Positions 15,300 to 46,900 are shown, counted from the first letter of the stretch. The stretch: 64,000 nt of DNA from Candidatus Methylacidiphilales bacterium (GCA_028713655.1 JAQTNW010000001.1:68465-132464), one strand, 5' to 3'. Notes: generated from the sequence alone by a model not told the origin. Program-made: numbers and translations.

Positions 15300-15330
15300 G
15301 CATGACTGGCAAAACCCAAATACAAGGCTG

Positions 15331-26782: not shown

Positions 26783-26797
26783 GGTTTCCTTGCCATT

Positions 26798-27595: not shown

Positions 27596-27602
27596 GGGAA
27601 TA

Positions 27603-30067: not shown

Positions 30068-31494
30068 GCAGGGGTCCTTTCCGCTCTATCCCAGATGTCC
30101 TGCAACTCCTTCATCTCCTTGTTTATTTCCTCGTCTGTTAGGAAGACAATTCCACTAAGGTTGTTAACCTTATCCCTGTAAAACGCAATGCCGAACAAAC
30201 TTCCTCCAACAGGCTCCATATTAACTAAGAAAACGTCTTCGTATTCATACTGATCCGCTGGTTGATCATCATAAACACAGTAAACACCTTTAGTTTCGGA
30301 GCCGCACACAAATCCCGATTGAGGAATAACCGCATCGTGATATTCGTCATTAAAGTGTTCTCCAAGACTTACCCATTGAGGGTAGTGGTGTTGGTGAGCG
30401 CAATTGCATTTACCGATAAGGTATAAAGGGTACGTAGCGTGGGCCGCCTTCAATCTAATAGCCTCATTCACTTCGCTTAGTAATTTAGGACACCTTCCGT
30501 TAAATGATATCTTTGCCGCATCATTGACTGTCAACACAGCACTATTGTTTATGTTGTAAAGAAACTCGCGCTTAGTTTCACCATTATCACCACACGAAAC
30601 TATTCGCCGCATTTGTATTATTTTTTTTTGATCCCGTTTATCTTTAAGGCGAAGTTTCTGAACACTCTGTTTATATTCTTCCCACCAAGGGTATGAATGG
30701 GCATAGACGAAGAGAGTTCCATCATTTCTTGAGGAGACGCTTTCCGACAAGTTATACCATCGCCTTATGGGCTTGCATAAGTGGGTCCATACACGAATAG
30801 TTCCTGGATGTCTGGGATTACAGGCAGTAACTATTTCTAAAATACTTTTAACACATTCGGCGTAAACCTCGAAATTCGCTGGAAGAAGAAGGCGTCTCGA
30901 AGAGGGGTTAATTTGTTCAGGCAGTTGACGTAAGTAGTTTTGTAAAACTTGGGCAGCAAGATGCAATTCTTCAATCAGATTGTTCTGTTTGGAATCAGCT
31001 TCTACGACAAGCTTGTTCCACGCATAAATAACTGCCGCGTAACCCGATATGATTTTCTGAAAGTCTGTAGATAGCTGTCCAGTCGCCAGCTTGTTTGCCA
31101 ATTCCGAAAAAGCAAGACGCAGTGGCTCATAATGTGGGAATTGACGAAGCTTTTGTTCCTGCTGGATACCAAGAGTTATGCCCGACTTAATGCCCTCCTC
31201 GTGACCAGTGGTTGAGCCTGCTGCTTGGCCTCTTTTGAAACCTACATTATCACCAGACCGATATGCACTTCGGGAAAACAAAATTACTGCTACCGTCCCG
31301 ATAATAAAGAATATCCCGGTGAGACAAATATGTTCTTTGTCTGAAATAGCTAAAGCTAGCGATTTGCCTATGTAAGTAACAGCTTCTGATGCGTAGTGAA
31401 TGGTTGCAGCCCATGTTGCAAACACTACCAGAAGCCCTAGGAGAAGAGTAAACCATCGCGGCAGGCCCAGCAATTTTAGTTTTGGTGGTTCCAT
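30064..31494 (-). CDS. hypothetical membrane-anchored protein (2 N-terminal TM helices + ~380-aa unknown domain)
   Basis: 476-aa ORF. TM segments WFTLLLGLLVVFATWAATI and ICLTGIFFIIGTVAVILF. No recognised domain. 4-nt overlap with the radical SAM gene. Confidence 0.55.
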   Translation of the reverse strand: MEPPKLKLLGLPRWFTLLLGLLVVFATWAATIHYASEAVTYIGKSLALAISDKEHICLTGIFFIIGTVAVILFSRSAYRSGDNVGFKRGQAAGSTTGHEEGIKSGITLGIQQEQKLRQFPHYEPLRLAFSELANKLATGQLSTDFQKIISGYAAVIYAWNKLVVEADSKQNNLIEELHLAAQVLQNYLRQLPEQINPSSRRLLLPANFEVYAECVKSILEIVTACNPRHPGTIRVWTHLCKPIRRWYNLSESVSSRNDGTLFVYAHSYPWWEEYKQSVQKLRLKDKRDQKKIIQMRRIVSCGDNGETKREFLYNINNSAVLTVNDAAKISFNGRCPKLLSEVNEAIRLKAAHATYPLYLIGKCNCAHQHHYPQWVSLGEHFNDEYHDAVIPQSGFVCGSETKGVYCVYDDQPADQYEYEDVFLVNMEPVGGSLFGIAFYRDKVNNLSGIVFLTDEEINKEMKELQDIWDRAERTPA

Positions 31495-31738
31495 TCTATA
31501 TCGGCATCTAATAGAGAAATGTCACAATGGGTGGTATTAGTCGCAATAGTTAAATCGCTAATCAAAGCTCTCGTGCTGCTTGCGGACGGCGTTTTCGCGG
31601 CGATGCCTGCAGCTTTATCTGTGCGACCTCAATTGAGTTATTCAGTGGATACCTCAGCCTAGATGAGTTGGTCGTAATATCGCTTTTTGCCGGAGCCTTC
31701 TTCATGCTCATAATATGTGCTTTCATGTGATAAGTGGG

Positions 31739-32893
31739 TTATTTTTTCAATACGACGGGAACAAATTTGCCATTCTCAACGCGATAGATTGTATATGGTT
31801 TAAATACGTCTCCGTTGGAATCAAATTTAGTTAGGCCGGTCGGTCCTTCATACTGCGTATTCAGCAATGCCTTTTGTATTGCCGGTCCGTCAATCTGGCC
31901 TGAAATACTGTTGATAGCCTTCGCTAAAACCTGAGTCGCATCGTAGAAGAGACCGGAGTAAATACCTGGTTCTTCATCGTAACGAGCCTGGTATGTTTCT
32001 ATGAATTTTTTAACTGCTGGATTCGTGTTAGGATCGCCCCAGCCAACCGTAACCCAATACGAGCCATCCGCCGCGTCACCAGATGTCTCCAATAATTGCG
32101 GATCATAGCCGCCGTCCGTTCCAATCACTATACTGGAAATAGCAAGCTCTTTTGATTGTCGCAGGATTGCGCCGCCTTCGGGATAATGAACCGCTGCAAA
32201 TATGAAGGCAGGAGAGGACGCCCGCACTTTAGTTAACTGTGCGCGCACATCCGTTGTATCTGCTGGTACAGCCTCCACGCCAACGACTGTACCGCCTAAA
32301 TCCTTGTACGCTTTTACAAAGGCGTCGCGAAGTGTCACTCCGTAGTCTGCGTTCCGATAAAGAACGAAGCTGCTTTTCAAGCCCAGCTTATTGAAGGCAA
32401 AATCAGCGATTGTACGTGCTTGCTCAAGGTTTTTTGGGCAAGTACGAAAAATGTACTCTCCCGCGTCTGTTATGTTGTCGCTAGTAGCGCTGCCGGTTAA
32501 GAGAACTACCCGCTGACGATTGGCTTCGGGAGCACAGGCCAGAACAATTCCGGAATAGAAGGGACCGAGTACTGCTTGAACTTTGTCAACTGAGGCAAGC
32601 TTTTGAAAGGCTAACAGACCATCCTTGGGATTTCCTTTGTCATCTTCATAAATGACAGTGAGCTTTTTGCCGTGAACTCCGCCTTGTATGTTGATTTCAT
32701 CAACCGCCATGTCTATGGCAGTTTTTGCTGCCTTGCCATAATTTGCTCCCTCGCCCGAAAACGGTGAAATCGCCCCGATACGAATTACCTTGTTACTTAA
32801 CTGATCGGTCTTGGTTTTGCATGAAACAAAACCGAGTGCAAGGACTCCGAATAGGCCCGCCAAAACGAAACATAATTTGATCCGCATTTTCAC
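31739..32893 (-). CDS. ABC transporter substrate-binding protein (LivJ/K-type, Peripla_BP_6-like lipoprotein)
   Basis: 384 aa. Lipoprotein-like signal LALGFVSCKT. IRIGAISPFSGEGANYG and the overall pattern are typical of type I periplasmic binding proteins for amino acids or amides. Confidence 0.8.
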   Translation of the reverse strand: MKMRIKLCFVLAGLFGVLALGFVSCKTKTDQLSNKVIRIGAISPFSGEGANYGKAAKTAIDMAVDEINIQGGVHGKKLTVIYEDDKGNPKDGLLAFQKLASVDKVQAVLGPFYSGIVLACAPEANRQRVVLLTGSATSDNITDAGEYIFRTCPKNLEQARTIADFAFNKLGLKSSFVLYRNADYGVTLRDAFVKAYKDLGGTVVGVEAVPADTTDVRAQLTKVRASSPAFIFAAVHYPEGGAILRQSKELAISSIVIGTDGGYDPQLLETSGDAADGSYWVTVGWGDPNTNPAVKKFIETYQARYDEEPGIYSGLFYDATQVLAKAINSISGQIDGPAIQKALLNTQYEGPTGLTKFDSNGDVFKPYTIYRVENGKFVPVVLKK

Positions 32894-33091: not shown

Positions 33092-36000
33092 ATGTCTTCA
33101 AAGTTTTTTACAAACGCAGAAGGCAATACACTGCTCCAAAAAATCCAAGGGGTTTTTGAGCACAAAAAAGTCCACTTTCTGGATGTCCTTGTGGGTTTCC
33201 TTCATGCCTCGGGTTACTTCCGGGTTCGCCCCTTTATAGCCAAAGCGCAAAAGATACGCCTCCTTGTTGGCATTTCCGTTGACCACCTGATTGCAGAAGC
33301 AACCACGCAGGGACTTCAACTCACTGCCAGCGACGATCAAATTCGCGGGGAACTGCTCAAGGCACTGATTGAGGATGTTCAAAAAGCCGATTACAAACCA
33401 GAGATTGAACAGGGAATGGTTGGATTGCTTGAAGATATTTCAAGCGAAAAAGTCCAGCTTCGCGTTCACCCCAATAGAAATCTTCACGCTAAAATTTACA
33501 TTTTCCGGGAAGAGCACAAGCACGCACACGGCTATGGAGCAGTAATTACAGGCTCCAGCAATTTAACGGCTGCCGGCCTGGAAAAGAATTTTGAATTCAA
33601 CGTTGAGCTTCGTGATGACGAAGAAATCGAATTCGCGGCCAACACCTTTGAAAAACTTTGGGGTGAAGGCGTTCCCGTCACCTCTGCATTTGCCCAGGAA
33701 TTAAAGCAACAGACTTACCTCAACGACGCATTCACACCCTTTGATCTTTACGTGAAGTTTCTCTTGGAATATTTCGGATCAGCTATCGAATTTGACCCTG
33801 ATTCCATTCTGGATTTACCCAAGGGTTTCAAAAAGCTTTCTTATCAGGTGGATGCAGTCAACGACGGTTTCACCAAACTGCAACAGCACAATGGCTTTTT
33901 CTTGGCTGACGTGGTGGGGCTTGGAAAAACCATTATTGCCACCCTGATTGCCCGCAAATTTTATTACAGCAATGGCTTCCCATCCTATCAATCACATACG
34001 CTTATTGTGGTTCCTCCCGCCTTGGAAGAAGGGTGGCGACAGACGGTGGACAAATTCAATCTGAACAACGTTCATTTTGAAACGGTTGGCAGCCTTCACA
34101 AGATCACGAATGCCCGCAAGTATGATCTTATCTTAGTGGATGAAGCACATAAATTCCGTTCCGACACGGCGGATATGTATCGCGAACTCCAACGCATTTG
34201 TAAAACACCGACCCGGCAGGGTTTGGATAAAAAAGTCATTTTGATTTCGGCCACACCTCTCAACAATAGGCCGCAGGATATTGCCAATCTGGTTTACCTT
34301 TTTCAGGACAGCAAAGATTCCACTTTGGACGTGGCCAATTTGCAGCATTTCTTCGCTCCCTTAATCAAAGAATACGAACGTTTGAAGCGGGATGGAACTC
34401 CCAAAGAAGTGCAAGAAGGCGTCCGCAAAATTTACGAAAGCATCCGCGAAACGGTCATCGTCCCCTTGACTGTCAGACGCACCCGCAAAGACATTGAAGC
34501 ACATCCCATATACCGGGATGATATAAAACGACAGGGCATCAGCTTCCCTAAAGTCCGTCCTCCACACCGGATTTACTACCCCTTGGATGTCAAGTTGGAG
34601 GAATTATATGACCGGACATTTCAAGCCATCAGTGGAGTCAACGGCGGTTTGACCTATTACCGTTATCAAGCCATTGCCTACCTCAAGCCAGAAAAACGGG
34701 CGCGGTATCAGTCTGCTCTTTTAATCTCCCAACAACTGGCCCGCATCATGAAAACGATGCTAATCAAGCGGTTGGATTCCAGCTTCCATGCCTTCCGCTC
34801 CAGCTTAAAACGGTTCCAGGATGCCACGCAAGTTATGGTCAACATGTTTGACAAGGGTGCGGTTTACATTGCTCCTAATCTGCCCGTGAATGAATTTCTG
34901 TTGGAAGACAAGGAAGACGAACTTATCAAATTGATAGAAGAAGCCTCGTTGACCGACCCAACCATACAGGTTGTTCAACCCTCGGATTTTGAAGACGCTT
35001 TTCTCCCCGGTTTAAAAGCGGATTTGCAGCTCTTGAGTGATCTCTATGCCGAATGGGAAGCCGTTGATTCTGACCCCAAACTGGACGCCTTTTTACTGTG
35101 CCTGAAAGACGATTTGCGCCAAAAAACAATCAATCCCTCGGGCAAGTTGATCGTCTTCTCCGAATCCAAGGAAACGTCTGAATACCTCGCCAAGCAACTG
35201 GAAGAACGGGGCTTTGGCAAGCTGCTCAATGTTTCCAGTCATAACCGTAAAGAACGGCTGCCGCTCGTTAAAGCCAATTTTGACGCCAATCTATCTCTTG
35301 ACCAACAGGCCAATGACTATGACATCCTTATCTCCACCGAAGTTTTGGCTGAAGGCATCAATCTGCACAGGGCCAATGTCATCATTAATTATGACACCCC
35401 CTGGAACTCCACCCGGTTGATGCAACGCATTGGGCGGGTAAACCGTATTGGAACTACGGCAGATGCCATTCACATCTTTAACTTTTTCCCCACCGCCAAA
35501 GTGGAAGAAGACATTGAATTGGAGCGTAAAGCCAAACTCAAACTTCATGCCTTCCACGTTGCTTTGGGCGAAGATAGCCAGATTTATTCAGAAGAAGAGG
35601 CTCCGGCCACATTCGGACTGTTCGATAAACTGCTGGAAGAAGAACAAGATCGGCGCTTGGACTATCTTATGTGGCTGCGCGAATTCCGCGAAAAGAACCC
35701 CAACCGTTTCAAACAAGTCAAAAACCTTCCGCGCCGCGCCCGCACCGGGAGGCAGCACAAAGGCTTTGTGGGCTCCTCCTATGTTTACGTTCGTTCCCAG
35801 CGTCGGGATGGCTTTTATTTCGTTTCACCGGATGAAACGGTCCAAGAGGCCACCTTTCTGGCCATGGCGGATGCGCTCAAAGCTACCCCCGAAGAGGTTT
35901 CCCATCCCTTACCCCCGGAACATCACCTGCATGTCAGCTCATCGGTGGAACATTTCCACTCCACCTGGCAGCAACAAATGGCCTTGGATAAAAAGGTCGA

Positions 36001-36337
36001 AGTACAGCCGGGGCCTACAGAAAGTAATGCCCTGTATTTCCTCAGTGCTTTGTTGCGCTTCCCATTGAGCAGCCCTGTGGAACAGCAACAATTTGCAGCA
36101 GCTCAAACCGCAATTAAAGCGGGGCGATTCCAGAATCTGGCCCGTGACCTAAACAAATTGCGCAAAAGCAACGACAAAGCCCCGGTTGCCATGGCCTTGC
36201 TCATCGAAAAGGCTTACAAACTGTGCCAAGGGTTCCCCTTGTTGGAAGAGGTGGAAGTAACTCCATCTACTCCCTCCCACCCTGCGGCGGTAGCTCAACC
36301 CCCTGAAATCATTCTTTCTGAATCCTTTGTTGGTTAA
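33092..36337 (+). CDS. HKD (PLD-family) nuclease domain fused to an SNF2-family helicase
   Basis: 1081 aa. Single HKD motif NLHAKIYIF...VITGSSNLTAAGL. SNF2 motifs LADVVGLGKTIIA (I), LILVDEAHKFRS (II, DEAH) and ISATPLNN (III). C-terminal helicase motifs ILISTEVLAEGINL and TPWNSTRLMQRIGRVNRIG. Confidence 0.85.
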   Translation: MSSKFFTNAEGNTLLQKIQGVFEHKKVHFLDVLVGFLHASGYFRVRPFIAKAQKIRLLVGISVDHLIAEATTQGLQLTASDDQIRGELLKALIEDVQKADYKPEIEQGMVGLLEDISSEKVQLRVHPNRNLHAKIYIFREEHKHAHGYGAVITGSSNLTAAGLEKNFEFNVELRDDEEIEFAANTFEKLWGEGVPVTSAFAQELKQQTYLNDAFTPFDLYVKFLLEYFGSAIEFDPDSILDLPKGFKKLSYQVDAVNDGFTKLQQHNGFFLADVVGLGKTIIATLIARKFYYSNGFPSYQSHTLIVVPPALEEGWRQTVDKFNLNNVHFETVGSLHKITNARKYDLILVDEAHKFRSDTADMYRELQRICKTPTRQGLDKKVILISATPLNNRPQDIANLVYLFQDSKDSTLDVANLQHFFAPLIKEYERLKRDGTPKEVQEGVRKIYESIRETVIVPLTVRRTRKDIEAHPIYRDDIKRQGISFPKVRPPHRIYYPLDVKLEELYDRTFQAISGVNGGLTYYRYQAIAYLKPEKRARYQSALLISQQLARIMKTMLIKRLDSSFHAFRSSLKRFQDATQVMVNMFDKGAVYIAPNLPVNEFLLEDKEDELIKLIEEASLTDPTIQVVQPSDFEDAFLPGLKADLQLLSDLYAEWEAVDSDPKLDAFLLCLKDDLRQKTINPSGKLIVFSESKETSEYLAKQLEERGFGKLLNVSSHNRKERLPLVKANFDANLSLDQQANDYDILISTEVLAEGINLHRANVIINYDTPWNSTRLMQRIGRVNRIGTTADAIHIFNFFPTAKVEEDIELERKAKLKLHAFHVALGEDSQIYSEEEAPATFGLFDKLLEEEQDRRLDYLMWLREFREKNPNRFKQVKNLPRRARTGRQHKGFVGSSYVYVRSQRRDGFYFVSPDETVQEATFLAMADALKATPEEVSHPLPPEHHLHVSSSVEHFHSTWQQQMALDKKVEVQPGPTESNALYFLSALLRFPLSSPVEQQQFAAAQTAIKAGRFQNLARDLNKLRKSNDKAPVAMALLIEKAYKLCQGFPLLEEVEVTPSTPSHPAAVAQPPEIILSESFVG

Positions 36338-36342
36338 GTATC

Positions 36343-39300
36343 ATGACACGCACTGAACTACGCGAAAAACTCCGCCAAAAATTTTCCTCGGAAACGTGGA
36401 AGGATATTCTGCCCCGGCTATTTCCCGGCACGGCCTTCTTTCAAGCTCCGCAGGAAGTCATTGCAGATGGAGAAGTGGCTAAAAGTATCCGTCAAACGGG
36501 ATTCCTCCCGCTGGCCGATGACAGTCGCTTGGGATTATTTGAAGTGGAGATAGCCAGCGAACACACGGTCATTGCCCGCAATCGCGTTGGCCTTCGTGCA
36601 CTTGTAGCCAAGCTGGTAGATCAGGCCGCCATTCACGGGGCCTTGGTGCTGTTTTATCGCCCCAGCAGCCAGGAATACCGACTTTCCTTCATCACAAAGC
36701 AATCAAGTTTTACCGTAGACGGGAAACTTCAGACAACCGAGACGGCCCCCAAGCGTTACACCTATGTCCTTGGCCCAGAGGAGCCCTGTACAACGGCCAC
36801 CCAACGCTTGGGTGAATTGCTGGAACGGGATGCCCGTCCCACTTTGGATTCGGTCACCCAAGCTTTCTCGGTCGCACGTGTAACCCGTGAATTTTACAAA
36901 GCCATTGAACAACATCATGCCGATCTAAAAGAGCACTTGGAAAAGATCAAGCGCATCAAAGGGTTTGAAGAACCGCGTATTCGCGCTCAGTTTGCCACCC
37001 GTCTTCTGGGACGATTAGTATTCCTCCGATTTTTGGCCAAGAAAGGCATTGTCCCCATTGCCCTGTTCGATCCAGAGAATGAACGGGACGTCACTTTTTA
37101 TCAGAAAACTCTTGGGGCTCTTTTCTTTCAGACCTTAAACAAGCCAAAGGAAGACCGTCCGGCCAACTTGCCACCGGAGTTTTCCAAGGTTCCTTATCTC
37201 AATGGCGGTTTGTTTGAACCGCATGACCCCCATGACGGTTGGCCCAATCCTTCGTTTTATATTCCCCCGGAGTGGTTCAAGAATCTGTTTGAAACCTTCC
37301 AAGCATACAACTTCACCGTCGATGAAAACTCGCTTCAGGATGTCGAAATCGCCGTTGACCCGGAAATGTTGGGGCAAATCTTTGAAAATTTGCTTGCCAC
37401 AGTCAACACTGAGACAGGCCAGAGCGCCCGTGATGCACACGGCACGTTTTATACTCCGCGTGAAGTAGTAGATTATCTTTGTCGCCAAGGTGTACGCCTC
37501 AGGCTTCAGAACCTGTTCCCTGAAGTAAAAGAAGACCAGTGGGAAGCATTGTTTGCGCAATCTTCTGGAACCGCCTTGGCGGAGTTCTCCGTGGACAAAG
37601 GAAGACTGCTTGACTCCCTGGACAAACTAAAAATCTTTGACCCTGCGGTTGGCTCCGGGGCTTTCCCCATAGGTATTCTGCACGTTCTGGCGGAACTTTA
37701 CGAAAAACTGGATGACCACTTTGACGCCTACAAAATTAAACTGAGGATCATTAAAAATAACCTCTACGGAGCGGACATTGAACCAATGGCAATTGAATTG
37801 GCAAAGCTCCGCTGCTGGCTGTCGCTTATGGTTGAATCCGACAGAATAAAAGTCCTGCCCTTGCCCAATTTGGATCTCAAATTTTTCTGCCTAAATACTT
37901 TATTTGATCCGCCGCCTTTGGATCGGGAAGATCTATTCTTACGGGATGGATTGATTGAACTGTACGATTTAGAACAGGATTTCTTCGGCTGCAACGCCAA
38001 GGAAAAGCCAGCCCGCCGTCTGGCCATTGGAAAGAAACTCGATGAGCTTTATCAAGGTGTCCGCAGCCAGTATGTCCGCACCGCTTTAAAAAAGGGAACC
38101 GAGTCCAAAAAACGAAAGAGCGCCTTGGACGCCGCCAGCCTTTATCCCGAAAACAAAACCTTGTTCCAAGACTGGCTTAATCAGGGCACTCACGCCCTGC
38201 CGTTCTTCCCGAAGGAATTGCTCTGTCCGGATGTCTTCCCGCTCCAATCCGTCACGGGCGGCACGGTTCTGAACAACCTACTTTTGGTCAACCAGATTAA
38301 GGGCCAGCAGGAGCTGGTGACCAAAAAACAACCGCCCCGCAGTGGGTTTGATGTGGTTGTGGCCAATCCTCCATATGTGAGGCAGGAAGACATCAAAGAG
38401 CTCAAGCCTCGGCTAGAACACTACGAATGCTTCAAGGGTACCGCAGATTTGTATGTCTATTTTTACGAGCGTTCTGTGCAGTTGTTGACTAGAGGTGGAT
38501 CGCTGGCCTTCATCACATCGAATAAATATTTCCGCGCGGGTTATGGCGATAAATTGCGTGGTTTTCTGGCGGAAAGGCATACCCTGCATCAGGTCATTGA
38601 TTTCGGGGATGCTCCGGTCTTCACCGCCGTTGCCTATCCCAGCATCGTGCTGCTTACGAAGGAACAGCCCGATTCCGGGGAGGTGAAAGCCATGACGTGG
38701 GAACCGGGGTCACCAGTGGAGGATTTTGCCCGCATCTTTTCGGCCCAAAGCTTCTTTATTCAACAAAATCTATTCACGGCAGAAAGCTGGAGGATTGAGC
38801 GGCCCGACGTGCTAGCCCTGCTGAAACGGCTAAAAGAATACGGTACGCCTCTGGGCGAATATATCAATCGGCGGCTCTATCGCGGCATTTTAACCGGTAT
38901 GAATGATGCATTCGTAGTGGATAGGGAAACAAGAGATGCCTTGATTGCAAAGCACCCCTCCTCAGAAGTGGTGCTGAAACCGTTTTTGCGAGGACGAGAT
39001 GTGAAACGTTGGCGCACAGAATTTGACGCTCAGTTTCTGATTAAAATCGAATCATCTGAAAATGCCACACACCCTTGGACTGGGGAGAAAGATTCGGAAG
39101 CTTGGAAGACTTTTGGTGAAATCTATCCAGCGATTAAGTGCTTTATGGAGGGCCTGGAAGACATAAAGCTTGAAGAGCCTGATAAACGCGGCTGCAAAAA
39201 TAAGTTTGAACAACTAAAAAGTCGTGACGATCAAGGGAAATATTTCTGGGAGTTGCGTTCGTGCGCCTACTGGAAAGAGTTCGAAAATCCTAAAATTATC

Positions 39301-39825
39301 ATTCCGGCAATCGAAAAAGATTGCGCATATGCTCCAGAACTTAACGGTTTTTATTCAAACGACAAAACCTCAATTTGCGTCACATCTGAAATCGACTTTT
39401 TACTAGCTCAACTAAATTCATCGGTTCTGTTTTGGCTTATCCGTAAAACGGCAGCCACAAAACAAGGCGGTTTTTATGAATTTAAGCCAATGTATGTGGA
39501 GGCTCTGCCTATTGTATCAGCCACAGAAATTCAAAAGAGATTGGTGGAACGCATTGTTTCAATTTTAATTTCGGGTGGAACAACTCCACTACTTGAATCC
39601 ATCCTAAACGCCTTGATTTACGAACTCTATTTTCCAGAGGAATTACACATTGCAAATCTTCGCTTCTTTGATCTCGTAGACAAAACTGGCTTACCAGAAG
39701 CCGGTGATGCCAAGGCCATTACTGCTTTCACACAAGTCATGACCGACCCAAACCACGTTCTACGCCGCGCCCTATTTACTTTGGGTTCATTGCCAATTGT
39801 CCGTCTGATTGAATCGAAACAATGA
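36343..39825 (+). CDS. large gamma-class N6-adenine DNA methyltransferase (Eco57I/PglX-like)
   Basis: 1160 aa. SAM motif I IFDPAVGSGAFPIG, NNLYGADIEPMAIELAKLR, catalytic motif IV VVANPPYVRQEDI, and a long C-terminal region (putative target recognition). Starts 5 nt after the helicase stop. Confidence 0.85.
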   Translation: MTRTELREKLRQKFSSETWKDILPRLFPGTAFFQAPQEVIADGEVAKSIRQTGFLPLADDSRLGLFEVEIASEHTVIARNRVGLRALVAKLVDQAAIHGALVLFYRPSSQEYRLSFITKQSSFTVDGKLQTTETAPKRYTYVLGPEEPCTTATQRLGELLERDARPTLDSVTQAFSVARVTREFYKAIEQHHADLKEHLEKIKRIKGFEEPRIRAQFATRLLGRLVFLRFLAKKGIVPIALFDPENERDVTFYQKTLGALFFQTLNKPKEDRPANLPPEFSKVPYLNGGLFEPHDPHDGWPNPSFYIPPEWFKNLFETFQAYNFTVDENSLQDVEIAVDPEMLGQIFENLLATVNTETGQSARDAHGTFYTPREVVDYLCRQGVRLRLQNLFPEVKEDQWEALFAQSSGTALAEFSVDKGRLLDSLDKLKIFDPAVGSGAFPIGILHVLAELYEKLDDHFDAYKIKLRIIKNNLYGADIEPMAIELAKLRCWLSLMVESDRIKVLPLPNLDLKFFCLNTLFDPPPLDREDLFLRDGLIELYDLEQDFFGCNAKEKPARRLAIGKKLDELYQGVRSQYVRTALKKGTESKKRKSALDAASLYPENKTLFQDWLNQGTHALPFFPKELLCPDVFPLQSVTGGTVLNNLLLVNQIKGQQELVTKKQPPRSGFDVVVANPPYVRQEDIKELKPRLEHYECFKGTADLYVYFYERSVQLLTRGGSLAFITSNKYFRAGYGDKLRGFLAERHTLHQVIDFGDAPVFTAVAYPSIVLLTKEQPDSGEVKAMTWEPGSPVEDFARIFSAQSFFIQQNLFTAESWRIERPDVLALLKRLKEYGTPLGEYINRRLYRGILTGMNDAFVVDRETRDALIAKHPSSEVVLKPFLRGRDVKRWRTEFDAQFLIKIESSENATHPWTGEKDSEAWKTFGEIYPAIKCFMEGLEDIKLEEPDKRGCKNKFEQLKSRDDQGKYFWELRSCAYWKEFENPKIIIPAIEKDCAYAPELNGFYSNDKTSICVTSEIDFLLAQLNSSVLFWLIRKTAATKQGGFYEFKPMYVEALPIVSATEIQKRLVERIVSILISGGTTPLLESILNALIYELYFPEELHIANLRFFDLVDKTGLPEAGDAKAITAFTQVMTDPNHVLRRALFTLGSLPIVRLIESKQ

Positions 39826-41489
39826 AAATCCAGAAGATCATTCTGAACAACTTTCGTGGGTTTCCCGGTCCACTGGATTACGAATTTAAACTAAATGGAA
39901 ATAATCTGCTTTTATTCGGAGAAAATGGGAGCGGTAAATCCAGTCTTTATCGTGCTCTGGTTGAGTTGTTTCAGCCGGATAATCTACTTACAAAATCAGG
40001 TGCTAAAAAACCATTTTCTTCGTTTCGCAATGCCTTTGCCAGAGACAATAACAACCAACTGCTGGCCACGGGAAAAGTCAGAATTGAATTTGATCGACCT
40101 GAACTGACTGCGGAATGGTCAGAGACTCAAGAGCGTTCACCGCACATGCAGGATGCTCCAACAGAGTTAAATCTGACAGCAAGAAGTATTGGCTGCCTCG
40201 ACTACCGAGCCATGCTTGAAACTAACTTCGTTCATCGCCATGGCAGGGTTAATTTGTTCTCGCTAATCGTGGAGCATCTCCTTGCTCACATACCTATTTC
40301 AAGCCACAGGAAAAGTGATGAAACTTTGGGAATTGCTTGGAAGCGTGTGCTTGCAGTCAAGCCTTCCAGTCATCGCGGAAGCCGTTGGAGAAACCGAGTT
40401 AAAAATGCGGAGGCCTTTTGGAACAACACTTTGCCTCCATTGTTAGGTTTATTGACTGATGAAGTTAACAAGCTTTTAGGTGACTTCAAAGCCACCGGAC
40501 TAACCGTCAAACTCACTCCAGGCACATTAAAATACAGCGAAACCGCCAGAAAATTTTACGGGATGGATGTGTGGCTAGATGCAACTCTGAACACTGAAAC
40601 TCCGGAGGAACCACAACACTTCTTGAATGAAGCTCGTCTTTCAGCCCTTGCTTTATCCTTGTTTTTGGCAGGGTACAAAATGAGCATCCATGAGCCTAGT
40701 CCCGGAGAAATAGAAAGTGCGCGAGTACTTGTTCTGGATGATGTATTAATTGGATTAGATATGGATAATCGAGTTCCTGTTTTAGACATCTTGCGCAATT
40801 TATTCGCTACCTGGCAGATATTACTGTTAACACATGATCGGCCTTGGTTTGAGATCGCTAAACAGCGATTACGTCCAGGAGGAAACTGGCAGGCATTTGA
40901 GGCCTATTCTCGACGTGTAGGAGACCATGAACAACCCATAGTTTTGGACGACTCCGATTTACTTCTTAGGGCGCTTGAATATTTTGAAGTTGGCCATGTT
41001 AAGTCTGCAGCAGTTTATGCTAGAGAACAGTTTGAAGTCACACTTAAATGGGCCTGTGAAACTTTCGCCATTCCTGTTCGCTTCCGTACATCTTTTCGTG
41101 ATGTAAAAGCAAACGATTTGTGGACAGCTTTGAAGGACGCGCAAAGAAAGATTCCTTTGCCTGCCGAGTATTGCACTATTGCCGCTGGCAAAACCATTAG
41201 ACTGCCAGTTAAATCCCAGAGTGTTCGGATCATTCCTGAAAAATTGGTTGAAAGAGTTGGATACGCACTGAGTTGGGTGTTAAATCCCCTTAGCCATTCC
41301 GAGCCTGTTAGCCGTTATAGTCGAGAGATTGAAGATGCCATTTTCGCAGTGGACGAACTTGATCGAACAGTGCGTCAATCCGCGCTTGATGCTCACAACG
41401 AACTCATTCTACAACGCAGATTTCTTGTTGGTTTGTTAAAAAGAAAGCCAGTATCATCTGAAGTCGAAAACCCAGTAGACTTGGCTTGA
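39822..41489 (+). CDS. SMC/ABC-like (RecF/RecN-type) ATPase with a ~200-aa unknown C-terminal helical domain
   Basis: 555 aa. N-terminus IILNNFRGF, Walker A GENGSGKSS, signature-like NEARLSALALSLFLA, Walker B VLVLDDVLIGLD, and LLLTHD. ATGA start/stop overlap with the methyltransferase gene. Confidence 0.75.
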   Translation: MKIQKIILNNFRGFPGPLDYEFKLNGNNLLLFGENGSGKSSLYRALVELFQPDNLLTKSGAKKPFSSFRNAFARDNNNQLLATGKVRIEFDRPELTAEWSETQERSPHMQDAPTELNLTARSIGCLDYRAMLETNFVHRHGRVNLFSLIVEHLLAHIPISSHRKSDETLGIAWKRVLAVKPSSHRGSRWRNRVKNAEAFWNNTLPPLLGLLTDEVNKLLGDFKATGLTVKLTPGTLKYSETARKFYGMDVWLDATLNTETPEEPQHFLNEARLSALALSLFLAGYKMSIHEPSPGEIESARVLVLDDVLIGLDMDNRVPVLDILRNLFATWQILLLTHDRPWFEIAKQRLRPGGNWQAFEAYSRRVGDHEQPIVLDDSDLLLRALEYFEVGHVKSAAVYAREQFEVTLKWACETFAIPVRFRTSFRDVKANDLWTALKDAQRKIPLPAEYCTIAAGKTIRLPVKSQSVRIIPEKLVERVGYALSWVLNPLSHSEPVSRYSREIEDAIFAVDELDRTVRQSALDAHNELILQRRFLVGLLKRKPVSSEVENPVDLA

Positions 41490-41523
41490 GCAATAGAACG
41501 CAATCAGTCAAAATAGACCCTTA

Positions 41524-41997
41524 ATGCCAGTTCAGTTTACAGACAGTGAAATCCAAGCGCTTCTTCTTGAGGGAAAGCCGCTGCCTGCTGACTACGCACT
41601 CAGGGTTGTGACCAAAGCCAAGCGCGGACATCGAGAGCGGGAATTGGCCGTAGAGGGTGAGGCAGGCAGTGATTTTGTCCTAAAGTTGCGCCAATCCTCC
41701 ATTAACCCACTGGATTTTTCCGTGATTTTGTGTGTTGTTCCCAAAGGGAAAAATGAGGAATTTCGCCTAAGACGGCATAACGGAAAAAGTCACGAACACA
41801 CGAATAAATTGGAGCGGGTCAAGATGTATGATTACCACATACACATGGCCACAGAACGTTATCAGCGAACAGGTTGGGAAGAGGACTCTTACGCTGAACC
41901 TACGAACCGATATCAGGACTTTCAAGGAGCCTTGCAGTCTATGCTGCAAGATGCCAACTTTATCCTGCCAGCTAATGCTCAGATTGAGCTCATTTGA
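41524..41997 (+). CDS. hypothetical protein (157 aa, His-rich core)
   Basis: ORF with segment FRLRRHNGKSHEHTNKLERVKMYDYHIHMATERYQ. No family recognised. Lies 34 nt after the ATPase gene. Confidence 0.55.
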   Translation: MPVQFTDSEIQALLLEGKPLPADYALRVVTKAKRGHRERELAVEGEAGSDFVLKLRQSSINPLDFSVILCVVPKGKNEEFRLRRHNGKSHEHTNKLERVKMYDYHIHMATERYQRTGWEEDSYAEPTNRYQDFQGALQSMLQDANFILPANAQIELI

Positions 41998-42007
41998 TTA
42001 AACTGCG

Positions 42008-42784
42008 ATGACAACAGACACAATCATACAAGACTTTAAACGCAAAGTATGCGAGGAAGTGCGCGTAGAACCGGAGGGCATGAATCGCTACCGGGTTTTT
42101 ACCCCCTTCATGTTCCAAGACGGTGATCATCTGGCTGTGGTTTTGCGCCATGAAGATGGCAAGTGGATTCTTGCCGATGAAGGCCATACTTACATGCATT
42201 TGACCTACGAGATTGACGAAGCATCCCTTCAAAAAGGAACGCGTCAGCAAATTATTAGCAATGCCCTGGATGCTTTCCAAGTAGAAGATAAGGACGGAGA
42301 ACTCCTAATGCGGATTGAGAAAGATCGCTACGGTGATGCTCTGTTTAGTTTTGTCCAGGCATTGATCAAAATATCTGATGTTACCTACCTTTCACGGGAA
42401 CGAGTACGGTCAACTTTCATGGAGGATTTTGAAGGCTTTATGACGCAGACAATTCCGGCCAGCCGAAGAGCTTTCAACTGGCACGATCCTCAAAATGACT
42501 CTGAAGGTAAATATCTGGTCGATTGTAAACTTAATGGTATGGAAAAACCGATTTACATATTTGCATTGCCAAATGACGACAAGGTAAGGGATTCAACTAT
42601 TTCATTGCTTAACTTTGAGCGGTGGGGACACAAGTTCCGCTCGCTGGCCATTTTTGAAGAGCAGGAGTCAATCAACCGCAAGGTTTTGTCCCGATTTAGT
42701 GATGTTTGCGAAAAACAATATTCCAGCCTTGGAGCTAACAAAGAGCGCATCTCTAAATTCTTGGGTGAAGCCCTCGCTGCATGA
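42008..42784 (+). CDS. DUF1828/DUF1829-like two-domain hypothetical protein
   Basis: 258 aa. N-terminal pattern (RYRVFTPFMFQDGDHLAVVL..EDGKWILADEGHT) recalls DUF1828 and the C-terminal half recalls DUF1829. This rests on memory only and needs an HMM check. Confidence 0.5.
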   Translation: MTTDTIIQDFKRKVCEEVRVEPEGMNRYRVFTPFMFQDGDHLAVVLRHEDGKWILADEGHTYMHLTYEIDEASLQKGTRQQIISNALDAFQVEDKDGELLMRIEKDRYGDALFSFVQALIKISDVTYLSRERVRSTFMEDFEGFMTQTIPASRRAFNWHDPQNDSEGKYLVDCKLNGMEKPIYIFALPNDDKVRDSTISLLNFERWGHKFRSLAIFEEQESINRKVLSRFSDVCEKQYSSLGANKERISKFLGEALAA

Positions 42785-42817
42785 TTGCTTTTGCAGCAAA
42801 GCCTGAACTAAGAAAGT

Positions 42818-43852
42818 ATGGCATTAATAACAAATAAAAACGGGCAATTTTTCCGCTCTGTTGTTTGGGAAAGTGAGAAGGATTTTGAAGGTCACATTGG
42901 CCAATTGGCGGACCGTCTTTTTGGTGAAACGTCGATTTATATTTCCATCAAACGGAAAGTCAGTAAGGGCGATATTAGCTGCATCCCGGATGCCTACGTT
43001 CTGGACTTGGCTGACCCCATTTCACCAAAACTTTACGTAATAGAAATCGAAATCCATTCACACGATTTGTATAAACACATTACTGAGCAACTCATCCGAT
43101 TCGCAGTCAGTTTTTCAAAAGACCAGTTGCCAGTACGCAGATTTTTAGGAGTTCACGTTTTCAATGACTCGGCTTTCCGAAAGAAATTGTTATGCGCTCA
43201 GAAGCAATCCAAAGCAGAAAACTTGGATGCTTACCTCGACCTGGCCGTCCTTAATCAGCCCTTCAACGGCCTTGTTGTCATCGACAACAGGACGGAGGAC
43301 TTGGACAACGTTTGTAAAGTATTCGCGAAACCGATTAGCGTTCTTGAGGTGCAGGCCTTCAAAAGCGATAAGGGCGAAATGCTTTATGAAATTGAAACCC
43401 TATACGGGGAAGAAGAGGACATTAATTTTGCCGCATCAGGTTCAAAGGGCACAGTAAACAAAAACTCCAAAAAAGCTGAGTTACATCGGCAACGACGTTT
43501 GACCTGTGACACCCTGGTTGTGCCTGCGCGGCCAGAAGGCTTTAAAGACACTTTTTTAGGCAGAAATCGTTGGTGGGCGGTTCGTATTAGTCCCGGTATG
43601 CTGGATCGCATCAAATATCTAGCGGCCTATCAAGTGCGCCCCATTAGTGCAGTCACACATATTGCGGAAGTGCAGCAAATCCGCCCATACGGAAACGAGG
43701 GTAAATATGAACTTGTGTTTTCCGGCCCAGCTAAAAAGATCAAACAAATCAGGCTAAAGAAATCAACTAAAGCACCCTACGGCCCCGTTTATGTTCGTAG
43801 GACCGACCTGCTCAAGGCTCGTTCCTTTGAAGATGCGCTACGTGCCCATTAA
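42818..43852 (+). CDS. hypothetical protein with an N-terminal restriction-endonuclease-like (PD-(D/E)xK-like) region and a conserved-looking C-terminal domain
   Basis: 344 aa. WESEKDFE ... IPDAYVLDL ... LYVIEIEIHSH resembles an E/D...ExK nuclease core, but Glu occupies the usual Lys position. C-terminal RWWAVRISPGMLDRIKYLAAYQVRPISAVTHIAEVQQIRPY..GKYELVF is of unknown fold. Confidence 0.5.
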   Translation: MALITNKNGQFFRSVVWESEKDFEGHIGQLADRLFGETSIYISIKRKVSKGDISCIPDAYVLDLADPISPKLYVIEIEIHSHDLYKHITEQLIRFAVSFSKDQLPVRRFLGVHVFNDSAFRKKLLCAQKQSKAENLDAYLDLAVLNQPFNGLVVIDNRTEDLDNVCKVFAKPISVLEVQAFKSDKGEMLYEIETLYGEEEDINFAASGSKGTVNKNSKKAELHRQRRLTCDTLVVPARPEGFKDTFLGRNRWWAVRISPGMLDRIKYLAAYQVRPISAVTHIAEVQQIRPYGNEGKYELVFSGPAKKIKQIRLKKSTKAPYGPVYVRRTDLLKARSFEDALRAH

Positions 43853-43854: not shown

Positions 43855-45120
43855 TCAGAGGCTTGGCCCGGAGATGTCTCTGGTTTTGGCTACGGGACGT
43901 TTGACTGTGATATCTAAGGTTAGTTCTCCAACTGCGAGCTCAAATCTTCCAATCTTTCGCACAAGATGCTCACAACAGATGTCAACTGCTGCACTGAGGC
44001 CGCCAAGGCCGCTTGCTCCTGCTGCTGCAACTGCTTGCGCTCGGAACAGGCCTGCAAGGCTGCGGACAAGAGTTTGAACTGCTCGGCCAAACCAGTTACT
44101 TGTCCTTGATGCGAAGCTTCCAGACTCTCCAAGGATTGTTGAAAATGGGTTAGTATTTCGCTCGGTTTCATAAGTCGGTTTCTGTTGTTGGGTTGGTAAA
44201 AAAGTCGGTGGACTCTGCGGAGGAGTTATGGAAATTTCAGCGGAAGTTTTAGGTAGGTCTTTTTGATGCCTTAGTTGCCGTTTTTTTTCAGCTCGGATTG
44301 CCATTTCATGACGAGCTGACTGGCGGATTGCCCGCCGTTCTTTCTCAACTTTGAGCCGTTCCATTGCCTCCTCTAATTCCTGCCTTTTGGTAATAGAGGG
44401 CTGTGTATTTTGATTACATATTTCGGTGCAAAAATCAGCTCTGTAATATGCTCCACGAAGGCCCGTGAACTTTTCGTCAGAGTGTTTTTTTATTTTTAAA
44501 TATTCAGCCGGAAGTTTGCCCTTTTTACTGCGCTTAATTTCATAGCCTTGGGCTTCCAAATAGAGCACAACATCATCCCGTTTGGTAATCGTTCCGGCGG
44601 CAATTTCATGCTGAATAAGTGCGTCAATTTCACTGATAAAATCCTTACTGGCTTTTGCAATCCGTAACGGAATGGATGTCATTTTTTTGCGGCTTGGATC
44701 GTCGGGCCGGGTGTAACCTTCCCGCAAATTTATGGTGTCTCTCAGTGCGTTCATTAAACGCCGGTCACGTGCGTCCAGATAAATTGTCAATTGCCTTCCT
44801 GATAATAGATTTATTTGGGGCATCAAAAAATGAAGCTCTGTCCGGCCTTTGTCGGTATGCCTAACCCAAAGCTTGTTTATCGCATTGCTAGGAAGACCAG
44901 AAGAAATTGCCTCTTCAAATTCTTCAATATGCTGGGTGACTTTTTCAGGCGTTATCGCCTCATTGAATGATAAACACCCCGAGCAAAAACGTTGTGAAAA
45001 ATCCAAAGTCGAGATCAGTTCTTCAGTTATAACTGGATCACCACGAAGCACCATCGCCGTAGGATTTCTGACGAGGTAAGCCACATTTGCACGCTCGCCA
45101 CCAAAAAAACTGATTACCAT
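43855..45120 (-). CDS. relaxase/mobilization nuclease domain protein (MobA/VirD2-type)
   Basis: 421 aa. The N-terminal ~200 aa carries the histidine-triad-like WVRHTDKGRTELHFLMP and is followed by a Q/A-rich tail. Preceded by a MobC-like gene. Confidence 0.7.
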   Translation of the reverse strand: MVISFFGGERANVAYLVRNPTAMVLRGDPVITEELISTLDFSQRFCSGCLSFNEAITPEKVTQHIEEFEEAISSGLPSNAINKLWVRHTDKGRTELHFLMPQINLLSGRQLTIYLDARDRRLMNALRDTINLREGYTRPDDPSRKKMTSIPLRIAKASKDFISEIDALIQHEIAAGTITKRDDVVLYLEAQGYEIKRSKKGKLPAEYLKIKKHSDEKFTGLRGAYYRADFCTEICNQNTQPSITKRQELEEAMERLKVEKERRAIRQSARHEMAIRAEKKRQLRHQKDLPKTSAEISITPPQSPPTFLPTQQQKPTYETERNTNPFSTILGESGSFASRTSNWFGRAVQTLVRSLAGLFRAQAVAAAGASGLGGLSAAVDICCEHLVRKIGRFELAVGELTLDITVKRPVAKTRDISGPSL

Positions 45121-45536
45121 AGTTCACCCTCTAACTTGTTCAGGATTGCCAGCAGTGCCGCTTGTAATTTTACGCAGTAGATAGCTGAAATTGATGGGTG
45201 TTCATTCACGGCTCGGGAAATGCTTTGTAGTTGGCTCAAAATCTGTGCCTTCCAAAGTATTTCAGTGGAATCAATCGGTGCGTTGGGCATGCCCTCTGGT
45301 TGCTTTGTGCCAAGCAATAGTGCCCGCACCAACGCGGGAACTTTCCGGCGCTGGTAACGTGCAAAGATGGCGGCTTCTTCCGCGTCATTCAGTCTGACGC
45401 GGAGCCATCGGTTACGCTTTTCCTGGGGGTTCATGGGGGCTTTATGCAGGGGTTCCAAGGGGGCGGAACGCCCCCTTGGCGAGGTAGGCGTGAGCACTCC
45501 AAGTGATACACGCCTAACCTCGCCGTAGTTATTCAT
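45114..45536 (-). CDS. MobC-like relaxosome accessory protein (ribbon-helix-helix)
   Basis: RWLRVRLNDAEEAAIFARYQR is typical of MobC/RHH mobilization proteins. The start is either the ATG at 45536 (ATGA overlap with the upstream stop) or the ATG at 45434. Confidence 0.65.
   Translation of the reverse strand: MNNYGEVRRVSLGVLTPTSPRGRSAPLEPLHKAPMNPQEKRNRWLRVRLNDAEEAAIFARYQRRKVPALVRALLLGTKQPEGMPNAPIDSTEILWKAQILSQLQSISRAVNEHPSISAIYCVKLQAALLAILNKLEGELW
45455..45523. other. two adjacent inverted repeats, candidate oriT
   Basis: ccaagggggcg-gaa-cgcccccttgg (45455-45479) and cgaggtaggcgtg ... cacgcctaacctcg (45480-45492 / 45509-45523), located at the 5' end of or just upstream of mobC. Confidence 0.35.
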
Positions 45537-46354: not shown

Positions 46355-46554
46355 ACATTTTCCTCCGTTTTTCTGGTGTATTTTTTTCTGCTTTTTCCGT
46401 CCAGTGCTTCCACAAAGGACATTAACTCTGTCTTGTCTTCATCCAGAACTTTTGTGGCTCTGGTTCGTGCCAATTCCAAGGCCTTCGGGGGTGGGTTAGT
46501 GATCCCGATAGCCTTGAAACGCTCCTCAAGATCAATTATATAGTTTGGGTTCAT
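46351..46554 (-). CDS. hypothetical small protein
   Basis: 67-aa ORF translationally coupled (ATGA) to the downstream gene. No motif recognised. Confidence 0.4.
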   Translation of the reverse strand: MNPNYIIDLEERFKAIGITNPPPKALELARTRATKVLDEDKTELMSFVEALDGKSRKKYTRKTEENV

Positions 46555-46576
46555 TGTGTTGTCCTTTTTGGTTTAT

Positions 46577-46900
46577 TTATGGAAAAAATGGGTTTGCGCA
46601 CCATGCGGCATACGCTTTCCTGTTATCATCATCCCAGTGGCAAACGGCATAAGTGCTATCGAATGGCCACTTCCGAAGGCACCAAACATGAAGCAAGAAC
46701 TGCCCAACAAGCTGTTCGCCGCTACTCCAGTTGGGCATTCTGGAATTGATGTCGCTAGGGCTGAAGCGCTGTTTAGAAAAAACCAGATGCAACTTCGACC
46801 GGAAACAAGGGAATGTACACGCGAGGCGGTACAAATTCGCTGTCGGCGGGTCAAAGTTAACAGGTGGATGAGTTGGAGATACGGTAGATTTATAGTTCAT
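46577..46900 (-). CDS. hypothetical protein
   Basis: 107-aa ORF. Its start overlaps the upstream stop by 4 nt (46897-46900), which favours this frame over the competing 93-aa ORF. Confidence 0.35.
   Translation of the reverse strand: MNYKSTVSPTHPPVNFDPPTANLYRLACTFPCFRSKLHLVFSKQRFSPSDINSRMPNWSSGEQLVGQFLLHVWCLRKWPFDSTYAVCHWDDDNRKAYAAWCANPFFP

Follow-up and report, generated by a model that had tools for sequence, protein, structure and literature searches.

A probable composite anti-phage operon, with a conserved core of predicted nuclease-motor, adenine methylase and ABC ATPase, on a tRNA-Met island of a Candidatus Methylacidiphilales bacterium

The system known as MANTIS is the same as Gao_RL, Gao_29 and the DUF499-centred BREX-related type 2 (bioRxiv 10.64898/2026.09.23.753747; PMC12839542), which Rakesh and Krishnan classify as BR type 2 (PMC12839542). 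Its four components are the DUF499 AAA+ ATPase MtsA, MtsB with its DUF3780 domain, the N6-methylase MtsC, and MtsD, an HKD nuclease of the superfamily 2 (SF2) type; MtsA loads MtsC on DNA, MtsB stimulates hemimethylation, and restriction requires all four proteins (bioRxiv 10.64898/2026.09.23.753747). MtsD is a SauUSI-like dimer with a single PLD site, the cleavage activity of which has not been reconstituted in vitro (bioRxiv 10.64898/2026.09.23.753747). The MANTIS methylase hemimethylates an asymmetric 6-bp site, and DUF3780 (MtsB) is present in 98% of the BR type 2 loci. Here we analyse a window of 64,000 nucleotides (nt) from a Candidatus Methylacidiphilales bacterium (GCA_028713655.1, JAQTNW010000001.1:68465-132464) that contains a block of six genes, g1 to g6, at positions 33092-43852 of the window. 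For g3, g4 and g6, NCBI lists proteins of 100% identity from this metagenome-assembled genome. We consider it probable that these genes form a real operon that is a composite of three separate anti-phage modules, namely, a core triad (g1-g2-g3), the predicted mode of action of which resembles that of MANTIS, the closest known system, a two-gene cassette (g4-g5) and a single accessory gene (g6).

An earlier reading of this DNA, made from the sequence alone (hereafter, the sequence-only reading), took the six genes for a single self/non-self DNA-modification defence system. The layout that it described was borne out by the list of open reading frames (ORFs), in which six co-directional plus-strand ORFs are separated by 5, −4, 34, 10 and 33 nt, and the assignment of the locus to modification-based defence is supported as well, the biochemical activities of all the proteins being those that we infer. 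The unity of the six genes, however, did not hold. When their co-occurrence was checked, the six genes were not found jointly at homologous loci, so that the six-gene reading is refuted: neither g4 nor g5 is present in any of 80 loci retrieved with the ATPase g3 as the seed, and relatives of g6 are found in four others only. Profile searches with PADLOC v2, NCBIfam 2026 and Pfam assigned the block to none of the canonical Hma, DISARM, BREX or Type ISP/III systems, and the absence of DrmA, DrmB and the BREX partners noted earlier was confirmed by Pfam and PADLOC, these negative results, as well as those for DUF499, covering the ORFs of the island that were scanned. A scan of the block for promoters and terminators performed no better than it did on shuffled sequence and is, therefore, uninformative with regard to sub-operon structure. 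Among E. coli genomes, there was no near-identity nucleotide match to the whole block.

The conserved part of the operon was delineated from the best 80 of more than 255 metagenome loci seeded with the ATPase, using tblastn and ORF clustering, together with three neighbourhoods obtained from exact-protein matches (L001, L002 and L003). In 45 of the 48 loci with at least 4.2 kb of upstream sequence, the gene immediately preceding g3 encodes a methylase of the g2 type, and g1, g2 and g3 occur in this order in 25 of the 31 loci with at least 8 kb upstream according to ORF clustering, or 27 of the 31 once the tblastn matches in L092 and L133 are added. The order persists at protein identities down to 25-35%, and across distant relatives, at 25-55% identity, the stop and start codons of the three genes overlap or abut. 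Thus, g1-g2-g3 is a conserved, moderately widespread core, and only these three genes travel together. The comparison with helicase-methylase-ATPase systems made in the sequence-only reading stands insofar as the triad is a conserved unit across loci, but the canonical Hma system is not matched. Both L001 and L002 keep the g1-g2-g3 order, and the former contains the nearest orthologous locus (2744-12525, compared with 33092-43852 here). Identity to this ortholog drops along the operon, from 83% for g1 to 65% for g2, 48% for g3 and 35% for g6, with the fall in g2 concentrated in the target recognition domain (TRD) and with C-terminal domains of different lengths in g3, a pattern that points to recombination, or else to a higher rate of evolution, toward the distal end of the operon. 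The g3 family encompasses 287 clusters at E ≤ 1e-30 among 1.84 billion representatives clustered at 50% identity, with named homologs from Verrucomicrobiota, Deltaproteobacteria and a Thorarchaeota archaeon. The triad is apparently unnamed in the literature, although a prior mention in the ABC-ATPase classification of Krishnan et al. 2020 is possible.

The first gene (g1; 33092-36337, plus strand, 1081 amino acids (aa)) encodes an HKD/PLD nuclease joined to an SNF2-type SF2 ATPase, with Pfam matches to PLDc_2 (residues 103-190), SNF2-rel_dom, ResIII and Helicase_C. The motifs previously reported for this protein are all readable in the translation and agree with Pfam, namely, HKD (HAKIYIF...GSSN, that is, H132-A-K134 IYIF ... 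G154SSN), GLGKT, DEAH, SAT and QRIGRVNR. Given the single HKD motif per chain, dimerisation is expected for the formation of the PLD active site, so that g1 probably dimerises. The best PADLOC model is 'HKD+Snf2' C3a139 (E 1e-49, 167 bits; residues 11-833 aligned to positions 8-774 of the 948 in the profile). Further PADLOC matches, including DrmD (1e-37), BrxH, DpdE and HmaA, reflect the helicase core that these proteins have in common. None of the NCBIfam equivalogs comes close to its cut-off, and Pfam detects no DUF3427-type reader of modified bases. By analogy, g1 is the predicted restriction effector of the core triad.

The second protein (g2; 36343-39825, plus strand, 1160 aa) was recognised from the start as a gamma-class N6-adenine DNA methyltransferase, in agreement with the motifs DPAVGSGAFP (residues 433-442) and N675PPY and with the Pfam matches to Eco57I (2e-36), N6_Mtase, TaqI_C and MmeI_Mtase, the TaqI_C match corresponding to a TRD of that type. 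Residues 1-700 are 70-83% identical to the L001 ortholog, in contrast to 35-61% for the TRD part, and the faster divergence of the TRD fits a specificity subunit. The best PADLOC model, REase_MTase_IIG (8e-113), begins to align at residue 167, which corresponds to position 194 of the profile, and the DrmMI and PglX models are matched only partially. Across 49 homologs, the N-terminal 170 aa contain no conserved ExK lysine, the position after 'E-V' being occupied by E, K, L or a gap. With the nuclease part of the IIG profile unaligned and the ExK lysine not conserved, g2 would lack a recognisable nuclease, and cleavage is, therefore, likely delegated to g1. The predicted function of g2 is that of the self-marking and specificity subunit. 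The methylase of the methylase-ATPase pair in L003 (6048-11449) is longer, at 1318 aa.

Downstream of g2 and overlapping it by the ATGA sequence, which suggests translational coupling of the two genes, is g3 (39822-41489, plus strand, 555 aa), an ABC ATPase with a Rad50/SMC/RecF-like head (Pfam SMC_N/AAA_15/AAA_23). The earlier description of g3 as an SMC-like ATPase with Walker A and B motifs and a C-terminal domain that belongs to no assigned family agrees with both motifs and Pfam: Walker A is GENGSGKS (33-40), Walker B is VLVLDD (302-307), and an LLTHD H-loop follows. An AlphaFold2 (AF2) model (mean predicted local distance difference test score (pLDDT) of 85) shows a head without a long coiled coil, and Foldseek retrieves Rad50/SMC heads (E 1e-12), whereas the PADLOC matches (mad3, LmuB, PbeC, AriA and PtuA) are weak and mainly N-terminal. 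The C-terminal domain, about 180 aa and helical in the model, contains invariant residues R401, E405, C412, N488, H492 and E502. Its length across the family is 122-285 aa; as read in a set that includes proteins P0095, P0113 and P0114, the short forms measure about 122-127 aa, the long ones, which contain a beta insert, about 170-190 aa, and those that look duplicated 259-285 aa. Two proteins that appeared to be fusions involving the ATPase, P0072 (methylase + ATPase) and P0080 (PLD + ATPase), were rejected as fusion evidence since pairwise alignment showed both to be internal-deletion chimeras: P0072 joins residues 213-552 of g2 to approximately 81-358 of g3, its central part, without Walker A, and P0080 joins the PLD part of g1 to g3 from about residue 65-120, also lacking Walker A.

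Compared with MANTIS, the triad shares an HKD/PLD nuclease located N-terminally of an SF2/SNF2 ATPase (g1 being similar to MtsD, with uncertain orthology given the modest score of 167 bits), an N6-adenine methylase with a TRD that would provide for specificity and self-marking, and a second ATPase in the operon. It differs in that g3 is an ABC ATPase with a C-terminal domain of its own, rather than a DUF499 AAA+ ATPase of the ORC/Cdc6 clade, in the lack of DUF3780, and in the gene order, here nuclease-methylase-ATPase. We detected DUF499 neither in g1-g6 nor in the other scanned ORFs of the island, and found no DUF3780 either; because these two features fail, we do not file the triad as a member of MANTIS, even if, by analogy, it resembles MANTIS in how it would work. 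The statement that this architecture has no mechanistic characterization, accordingly, stands for the triad itself but not for its closest analogue, Gao_RL/MANTIS, which has been studied genetically, biochemically and structurally.

Other described systems are more distant. Like class 1 DISARM, the triad combines a DrmD-like SNF2 helicase with an N6-adenine methylase similar to DrmMI and a PLD nuclease similar to DrmC, the latter fused here to the helicase, but an ABC ATPase is found instead of DrmA and DrmB: the score for the DrmD model NF038317 is 155.9 bits, far short of its cut-off of 610, DrmA is matched by g1 only in part (E 1e-19) via the shared helicase core, and DUF1998 (DrmB) was not found in the scanned ORFs. 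With Hma (BR type 1) and BREX, the triad shares the helicase-methylase-ATPase logic and the hosting of embedded defence genes; however, Hma and BR systems employ a DUF499 ATPase and a TUDOR-SNF2-REase helicase, which in Hma are HmaC and HmaA, the SNF2 helicase whose REase is C-terminal, next to the methylase HmaB, whereas the methylase of the triad is Eco57I/IIG-like, and the PADLOC match of g1 to HmaA (4e-29) is limited to the helicase core. BREX needs PglZ, BrxC, BrxA/B, and BrxL or BrxH, none of which was found among the scanned ORFs (with PglZ and BrxC/PglY specifically sought), and the scores of the PglX models, 60-85 bits, are to be compared with cut-offs of 400-900 (85 against 500 for one of them). 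Type IIG/IIL single-chain enzymes (MmeI/Eco57I-like), the N-terminus of which bears a PD-ExK nuclease domain with a catalytic D...ExK, share with g2 the fusion of methylase and TRD; the best profile aligns only from residue 167 as noted above. For MADS, a system that also comprises a kinase, a phosphatase and further mad genes, MAD2 gave E 0.0047 and 15 bits against a cut-off of 720, the PADLOC mad3 match (1e-11) had its best stretch at residues 2-65, and no other mad genes were found. Judging from these comparisons, we rate the core as a putative methylation-based, ATPase-assisted restriction system, a variant that matches none of the described ones.

Under the explanation that we favour, g1-g2-g3 would constitute a three-gene system similar to restriction-modification (R-M). 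The methylase g2 would read a short DNA motif via its TaqI_C-type TRD and N6-methylate adenine as the self mark. A dimer of g1 with one PLD site would translocate by means of the SNF2 motor and cut DNA carrying unmethylated sites, by analogy with the model for MtsD (proposed, not shown in vitro) and with SauUSI (for which this is known). The ATPase g3 most likely has a regulatory role like those of the AAA+ ATPases MtsA and BrxC in MANTIS and BREX; it may load or license the methylase on DNA in an ATP-gated manner and effect the hand-over to the nuclease, which is the weakest step of the scheme, and its C-terminal domain might serve for sensing or as another effector.

A different role for g3 is suggested by PrrC of the EcoprrI system, an anticodon nuclease with an ABC ATPase that is encoded within a type Ic R-M locus. 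In this scenario, which we regard as unlikely, g3 would be a PrrC/RloC-like guardian with a latent C-terminal HEPN-type RNase, not a methylase loader, that is restrained by its R-M partners and released by phage anti-restriction proteins, resulting in abortive infection. An ABC head followed by a helical C-terminal domain of ~180 aa, strictly linked to an R-M-like methylase, is the arrangement expected of such a protein, PrrC likewise being an ABC ATPase that has an effector-like domain at its C-terminus and is genetically tied to an R-M methylase. Moreover, the invariant R401-x3-E405 and N488-x3-H492 in the C-terminal helical region of the model form a pattern similar to that of the catalytic Arg320/Glu324/His356 of PrrC, and the sole weak Pfam hints within the domain are to two HEPN-type families. 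These matches, however, are single-member, sub-threshold and not significant (HEPN_AbiA_CTD, E 0.055; DUF4145, E 0.1), a sequence-profile search of the Protein Data Bank (PDB) with the C-terminal domain returned only chance-level matches with nothing relevant, no detectable similarity to the PrrC sequence emerged, and there is no canonical Rx4-6H motif in a domain that ranges from 122 to 285 aa in the family. We therefore treat an HEPN-like RNase in g3 as a hypothesis only. A more elaborate proposal, which appears quite doubtful to us, unites the two roles: the triad would then be a widespread bacterial and archaeal relative, so far without a name, of MANTIS and the BREX-related systems, in which the ABC ATPase replaces the AAA+ loader and DUF3780, bears an HEPN-like effector in its C-terminal domain with the invariant R-x3-E ... 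N-x3-H, and combines licensing with a PrrC-style guard that fires once phage anti-restriction proteins disable the complex.

It seems improbable, on the other hand, that the triad is not a system at all but three independent genes clustered on an island, with g2 being a Type IIG/IIL enzyme, g1 a SauUSI-like Type IV PLD-helicase and g3 a separate ABC ATPase. The best PADLOC matches of g2 are indeed Type IIG enzymes, proteins of the MtsD type have a SauUSI-like architecture, and g2-g3 pairs lacking g1 exist (L003 and L159). Yet the fixed, overlapping or abutting g1-g2-g3 order in ~27/31 loci at 25-55% identity would be unexpected for independent genes, as would a set that is not broken by insertions between its members; furthermore, the N-terminus of g2 neither aligns to the IIG nuclease part nor has a conserved catalytic lysine, and g1 lacks the DUF3427-type modified-base reader.

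Returning to the composite operon, the place of g4, g5 and g6 in it is illuminated by the other loci, in which extra genes follow g3 and, in seven loci, also lie between g2 and g3, with the g1-g2-g3 set left intact by such insertions. According to Pfam and PADLOC, the 41 proteins encoded in this slot include GmrSD/HEC-05, McrBC, HNH, AIPR, Schlafen (SLFN)/AlbA_2 and SIR2 proteins as well as pAgo with its partners, HEC-01A, PDC-S05 and PDC-M41A. Hma, BREX, DISARM and type I R-M systems have likewise been described as hosts of embedded defence genes. The filling of the slot with known defence genes supports a defence role for the triad, and the variability of the slot after g3 explains g4-g6 as cargo in the same position.

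The first cargo unit consists of g4 (41524-41997, plus strand, 157 aa), a DUF6978-like protein with a Pfam score of 29.6 bits, exactly at the cut-off, and g5 (42008-42784, plus strand, 258 aa), a DUF1828 protein (Pfam, 4e-25; PADLOC PDC-M24B, 2e-21). There are more than 650 close homologs of g4 (55-64% identity), and in every neighbourhood that was read, a DUF1828 gene of ~258 aa follows directly, with a gap of 0-4 nt. In L164-166, the pair is embedded between BrxC/PglY and an SLFN gene, a methylase and an SNF2 helicase; in L167, a locus of the Hma/BR type 1, it is flanked by an SNF2-NOV_C helicase on one side and by a DUF1156 methylase with HEPN-DUF499 on the other; and in L169, its neighbours are a TnsA-like gene and an N6_N4 methylase. 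Thus, g4-g5 is a mobile two-gene cassette that is independent of the triad. PDC-M24 has been described as a two-gene candidate cassette embedded in BREX, DISARM and type I R-M systems (Payne et al. 2024, bioRxiv 10.1101/2024.01.29.577857); it belongs to the candidates without an assay, and the upstream partner of the DUF1828 family varies (bioRxiv 10.1101/2024.01.29.577857). The cassette described here resembles PDC-M24 in the match of g5 to PDC-M24B and in the embedding of two genes in methylation-based systems but differs in that g4 matches no PDC-M24A model at E ≤ 0.01 (PADLOC). The only PADLOC match of g4 at this threshold, DrmMII (0.0035), was rejected as spurious. A tblastn search of plasmids yielded no match for g4 and two weak matches for g5, and nothing relevant was found in the literature on DUF6978 and DUF1828.

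The last gene of the operon, g6 (42818-43852, plus strand, 344 aa), encodes a two-domain protein without a match in Pfam, PADLOC or NCBIfam. A search of 30 family members against Pfam at E ≤ 1 produced no consistent family, and a PDB sequence-profile search gave chance-level matches only. The AF2 model (mean pLDDT 88) shows two domains. With Foldseek, the C-terminal domain matches ZmASCH (E 6e-4, probability 1.0, target template modelling (TM) score 0.50) and, weakly, YTH, and the N-terminal domain, faintly PD-(D/E)xK-like, weakly matches EndoMS/NucS (E 0.08-0.12) and EcoRV (E ~1). Four residues are invariant (E20, K45, D63 and H82), and four more are nearly invariant (D58, E76, E78 and D83). 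Modification-dependent restriction enzymes that combine a domain of the PUA superfamily with an HNH or PD-(D/E)xK nuclease are a known kind (Lutz et al. 2019, PMC6765204). At the fold level only, g6 resembles these enzymes (PMC6765204) in its two-domain layout, with a PUA-like pseudobarrel of the ASCH/EVE/YTH/SRA class next to a domain that is weakly nuclease-like; it differs from them in belonging to none of the tested sequence families, in the E-x-E, rather than E-x-K, motif, and in the domain order, with the nuclease-like domain N-terminal and the reader C-terminal. On the strength of the structural model, g6 is thus predicted to be an accessory gene coding for a modification-reading nuclease, a putative member of an uncharacterised family of a known architectural kind. 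There are 108 relatives of g6 in one-genome-per-species data, from many bacterial phyla and ANME-1 archaea. Among the best 80 of these 108, g1- or g2-like genes are near only a handful, and g3 is near none. Operonic neighbours (n = 64) include N6_Mtase/Eco57I in 7 cases and ResIII in 7, as well as HSDR_N, Type ISP and Mrr; R-M components are a minority, and the rest are varied. In the ATPase-seeded set, g6 relatives follow g3 in L001 and L002 and are represented by fragments in L123 and L153.

We propose that g4-g5 is a cassette of the PDC-M24 type that inserts in methylation-based systems and probably serves as a back-up defence, and that g6 probably acts in a Type IV-like manner on modified phage DNA escaping the triad, a step suggested by its fold and position. 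That g4-g6 are instead obligatory subunits of one integrated six-gene system is highly improbable. The tight spacing (34, 10 and 33 nt) and co-direction of these genes, the location of g6 directly 3' of g3 in L001 and L002, and the frequency of terminator-like sites in the block, no greater than in shuffled sequence, are all compatible with such a system; the distributions given above are not, with g4 and g5 missing from all 80 ATPase-seeded loci and g6 relatives present in only 4 others, the g4-g5 unit residing inside unrelated systems, and relatives of g6 being located mostly away from g1, g2 and g3. Scarcely credible is the view that the block is an epigenetic-regulation or DNA-repair module, not defence, because, although SNF2 and ABC (Rad50/SMC-like) ATPases also serve in repair and in chromatin-like functions, the island is mobile and carries in addition an OLD/AriA-like gene, homologous loci embed GmrSD, McrBC, pAgo, AIPR and SLFN genes, the TRD is variable, and the triad recurs in unrelated metagenome loci, with g3 homologs in bacteria and a Thorarchaeota archaeon.

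Several observations weigh against the composite, MANTIS-like scheme in its present form. The loader role of g3 is a pure analogy since g3, an ABC ATPase, is not homologous to the AAA+ proteins MtsA and BrxC, and its C-terminal domain has no significant or consistent Pfam family at lenient thresholds (15 domains). The presence of g2-g3 without g1 in L003 and L159 implies that g1 is not obligatory; these methylase-ATPase-only loci are either a two-gene variant or decayed systems. The frequencies given for the triad come from the best 80 loci and, therefore, are estimates. As for g6, the nuclease call for its N-terminal domain rests on weak Foldseek matches (E 0.08-1), the putative nuclease motif, ExE, has a glutamate at the position of the canonical (D/E)xK lysine, and there are many housekeeping genes among its neighbours.

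The block 33092-43852 lies on a low-GC island for which the tRNA-Met (CAT) gene is the insertion site (47668-47744, minus strand; ARAGORN). As the sequence-only reading had it, the island is bounded by tRNA-derived repeats: a 47-nt direct repeat with 98% identity (repeat search D3) connects an attL-type copy of the 3' part of the tRNA gene at 20445-20491 with the attR copy at 47671-47717, inside the tRNA gene. In agreement with these boundaries, a tyrosine integrase (20542-21837, plus strand; Pfam Phage_int_M/SAM-like domains, NCBIfam XerC/XerD-like) is encoded next to the left repeat, and the GC content is ~0.42-0.50 over 22-48 kb compared with 0.53-0.60 in the flanks. As part of the explanation that we consider probable, the element is a ~27-kb integrative mobilisable island in tRNA-Met that carries the composite defence operon. 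Copies of a 22-nt tRNA-Met end are located at 20286-20307 and 20439-20460, 153 nt apart (repeat D4); the first, upstream of the 47-nt attL copy and 100% identical to 47665-47686, may be what is left of a previous or tandem integration into this site.

Converging on the operon is a homolog of MbeA-like (MOB_HEN) relaxases (43855-45120, minus strand). The 2-nt spacing reported between it and g6 is exact, with the gene bordering at 43855, and the relaxase identification stands at the level of an MbeA-like match below the cut-off (NCBIfam relax_MbeA_E1, E 9e-32, residues 20-286), with nothing found in Pfam or in a PDB sequence search. This gene is a mobilisation gene of the island and lies outside the defence operon. 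Three minus-strand ORFs of 171, 273 and 157 aa (45114-47370), the first two overlapping, occupy the space between the relaxase gene and tRNA-Met and have no match in Pfam, NCBIfam or PADLOC; they may be mobilisation accessory or excision genes. At the other end of the island, adjoining the integrase gene, is a gene for a 722-aa OLD-family ABC ATPase (22176-24344, plus strand; Pfam AAA_15/AAA_21/DUF2813; PADLOC AriA 1.5e-27, Old 6e-23, GajA ~1e-17), which is, by its sequence, another gene of the defence type on the island, distinct from the operon, and for which no obvious AriB or GajB partner was identified. Between this gene and the operon, the island contains non-defence cargo on the minus strand (24446-32893), namely, a branched-chain-type ABC transporter set with two ATPases, two permeases and one periplasmic binding protein, interleaved with genes for an S-adenosylmethionine (SAM)-dependent methyltransferase, a 536-aa B12-binding radical SAM protein and a 476-aa protein without a clear family. 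Outside the island, there is a 68-nt tandem repeat with 4.5 copies at 95% identity (14994-15301), and a 171-nt near-identical copy is found 809 nt upstream (14109-14279 compared with 14918-15088), overlapping short predicted ORFs; a CRISPR array was ruled out for the repeats at 14109-15301, the copies of which are too alike.

The locus is one more clear case of defence genes residing within a host system and highlights two uncharacterised accessory families, one being the pair of DUF6978-like and DUF1828 proteins and the other the g6 family, which has an ASCH-like domain. The triad is compact, with three genes in ~8.4 kb, and occurs in many lineages, and because it is not caught by the tested PADLOC v2 and NCBIfam 2026 models, censuses of defence systems would overlook it or place it under 'other'. 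A current puzzle in the biology of BREX, DISARM, MANTIS and MADS is why modification and cleavage should depend on partners driven by ATP. The triad appears to keep a MANTIS-like nuclease-motor and methylase while swapping the AAA+/DUF3780 pair for an unrelated ABC ATPase, so that it would represent a natural experiment on the role of the second ATPase.

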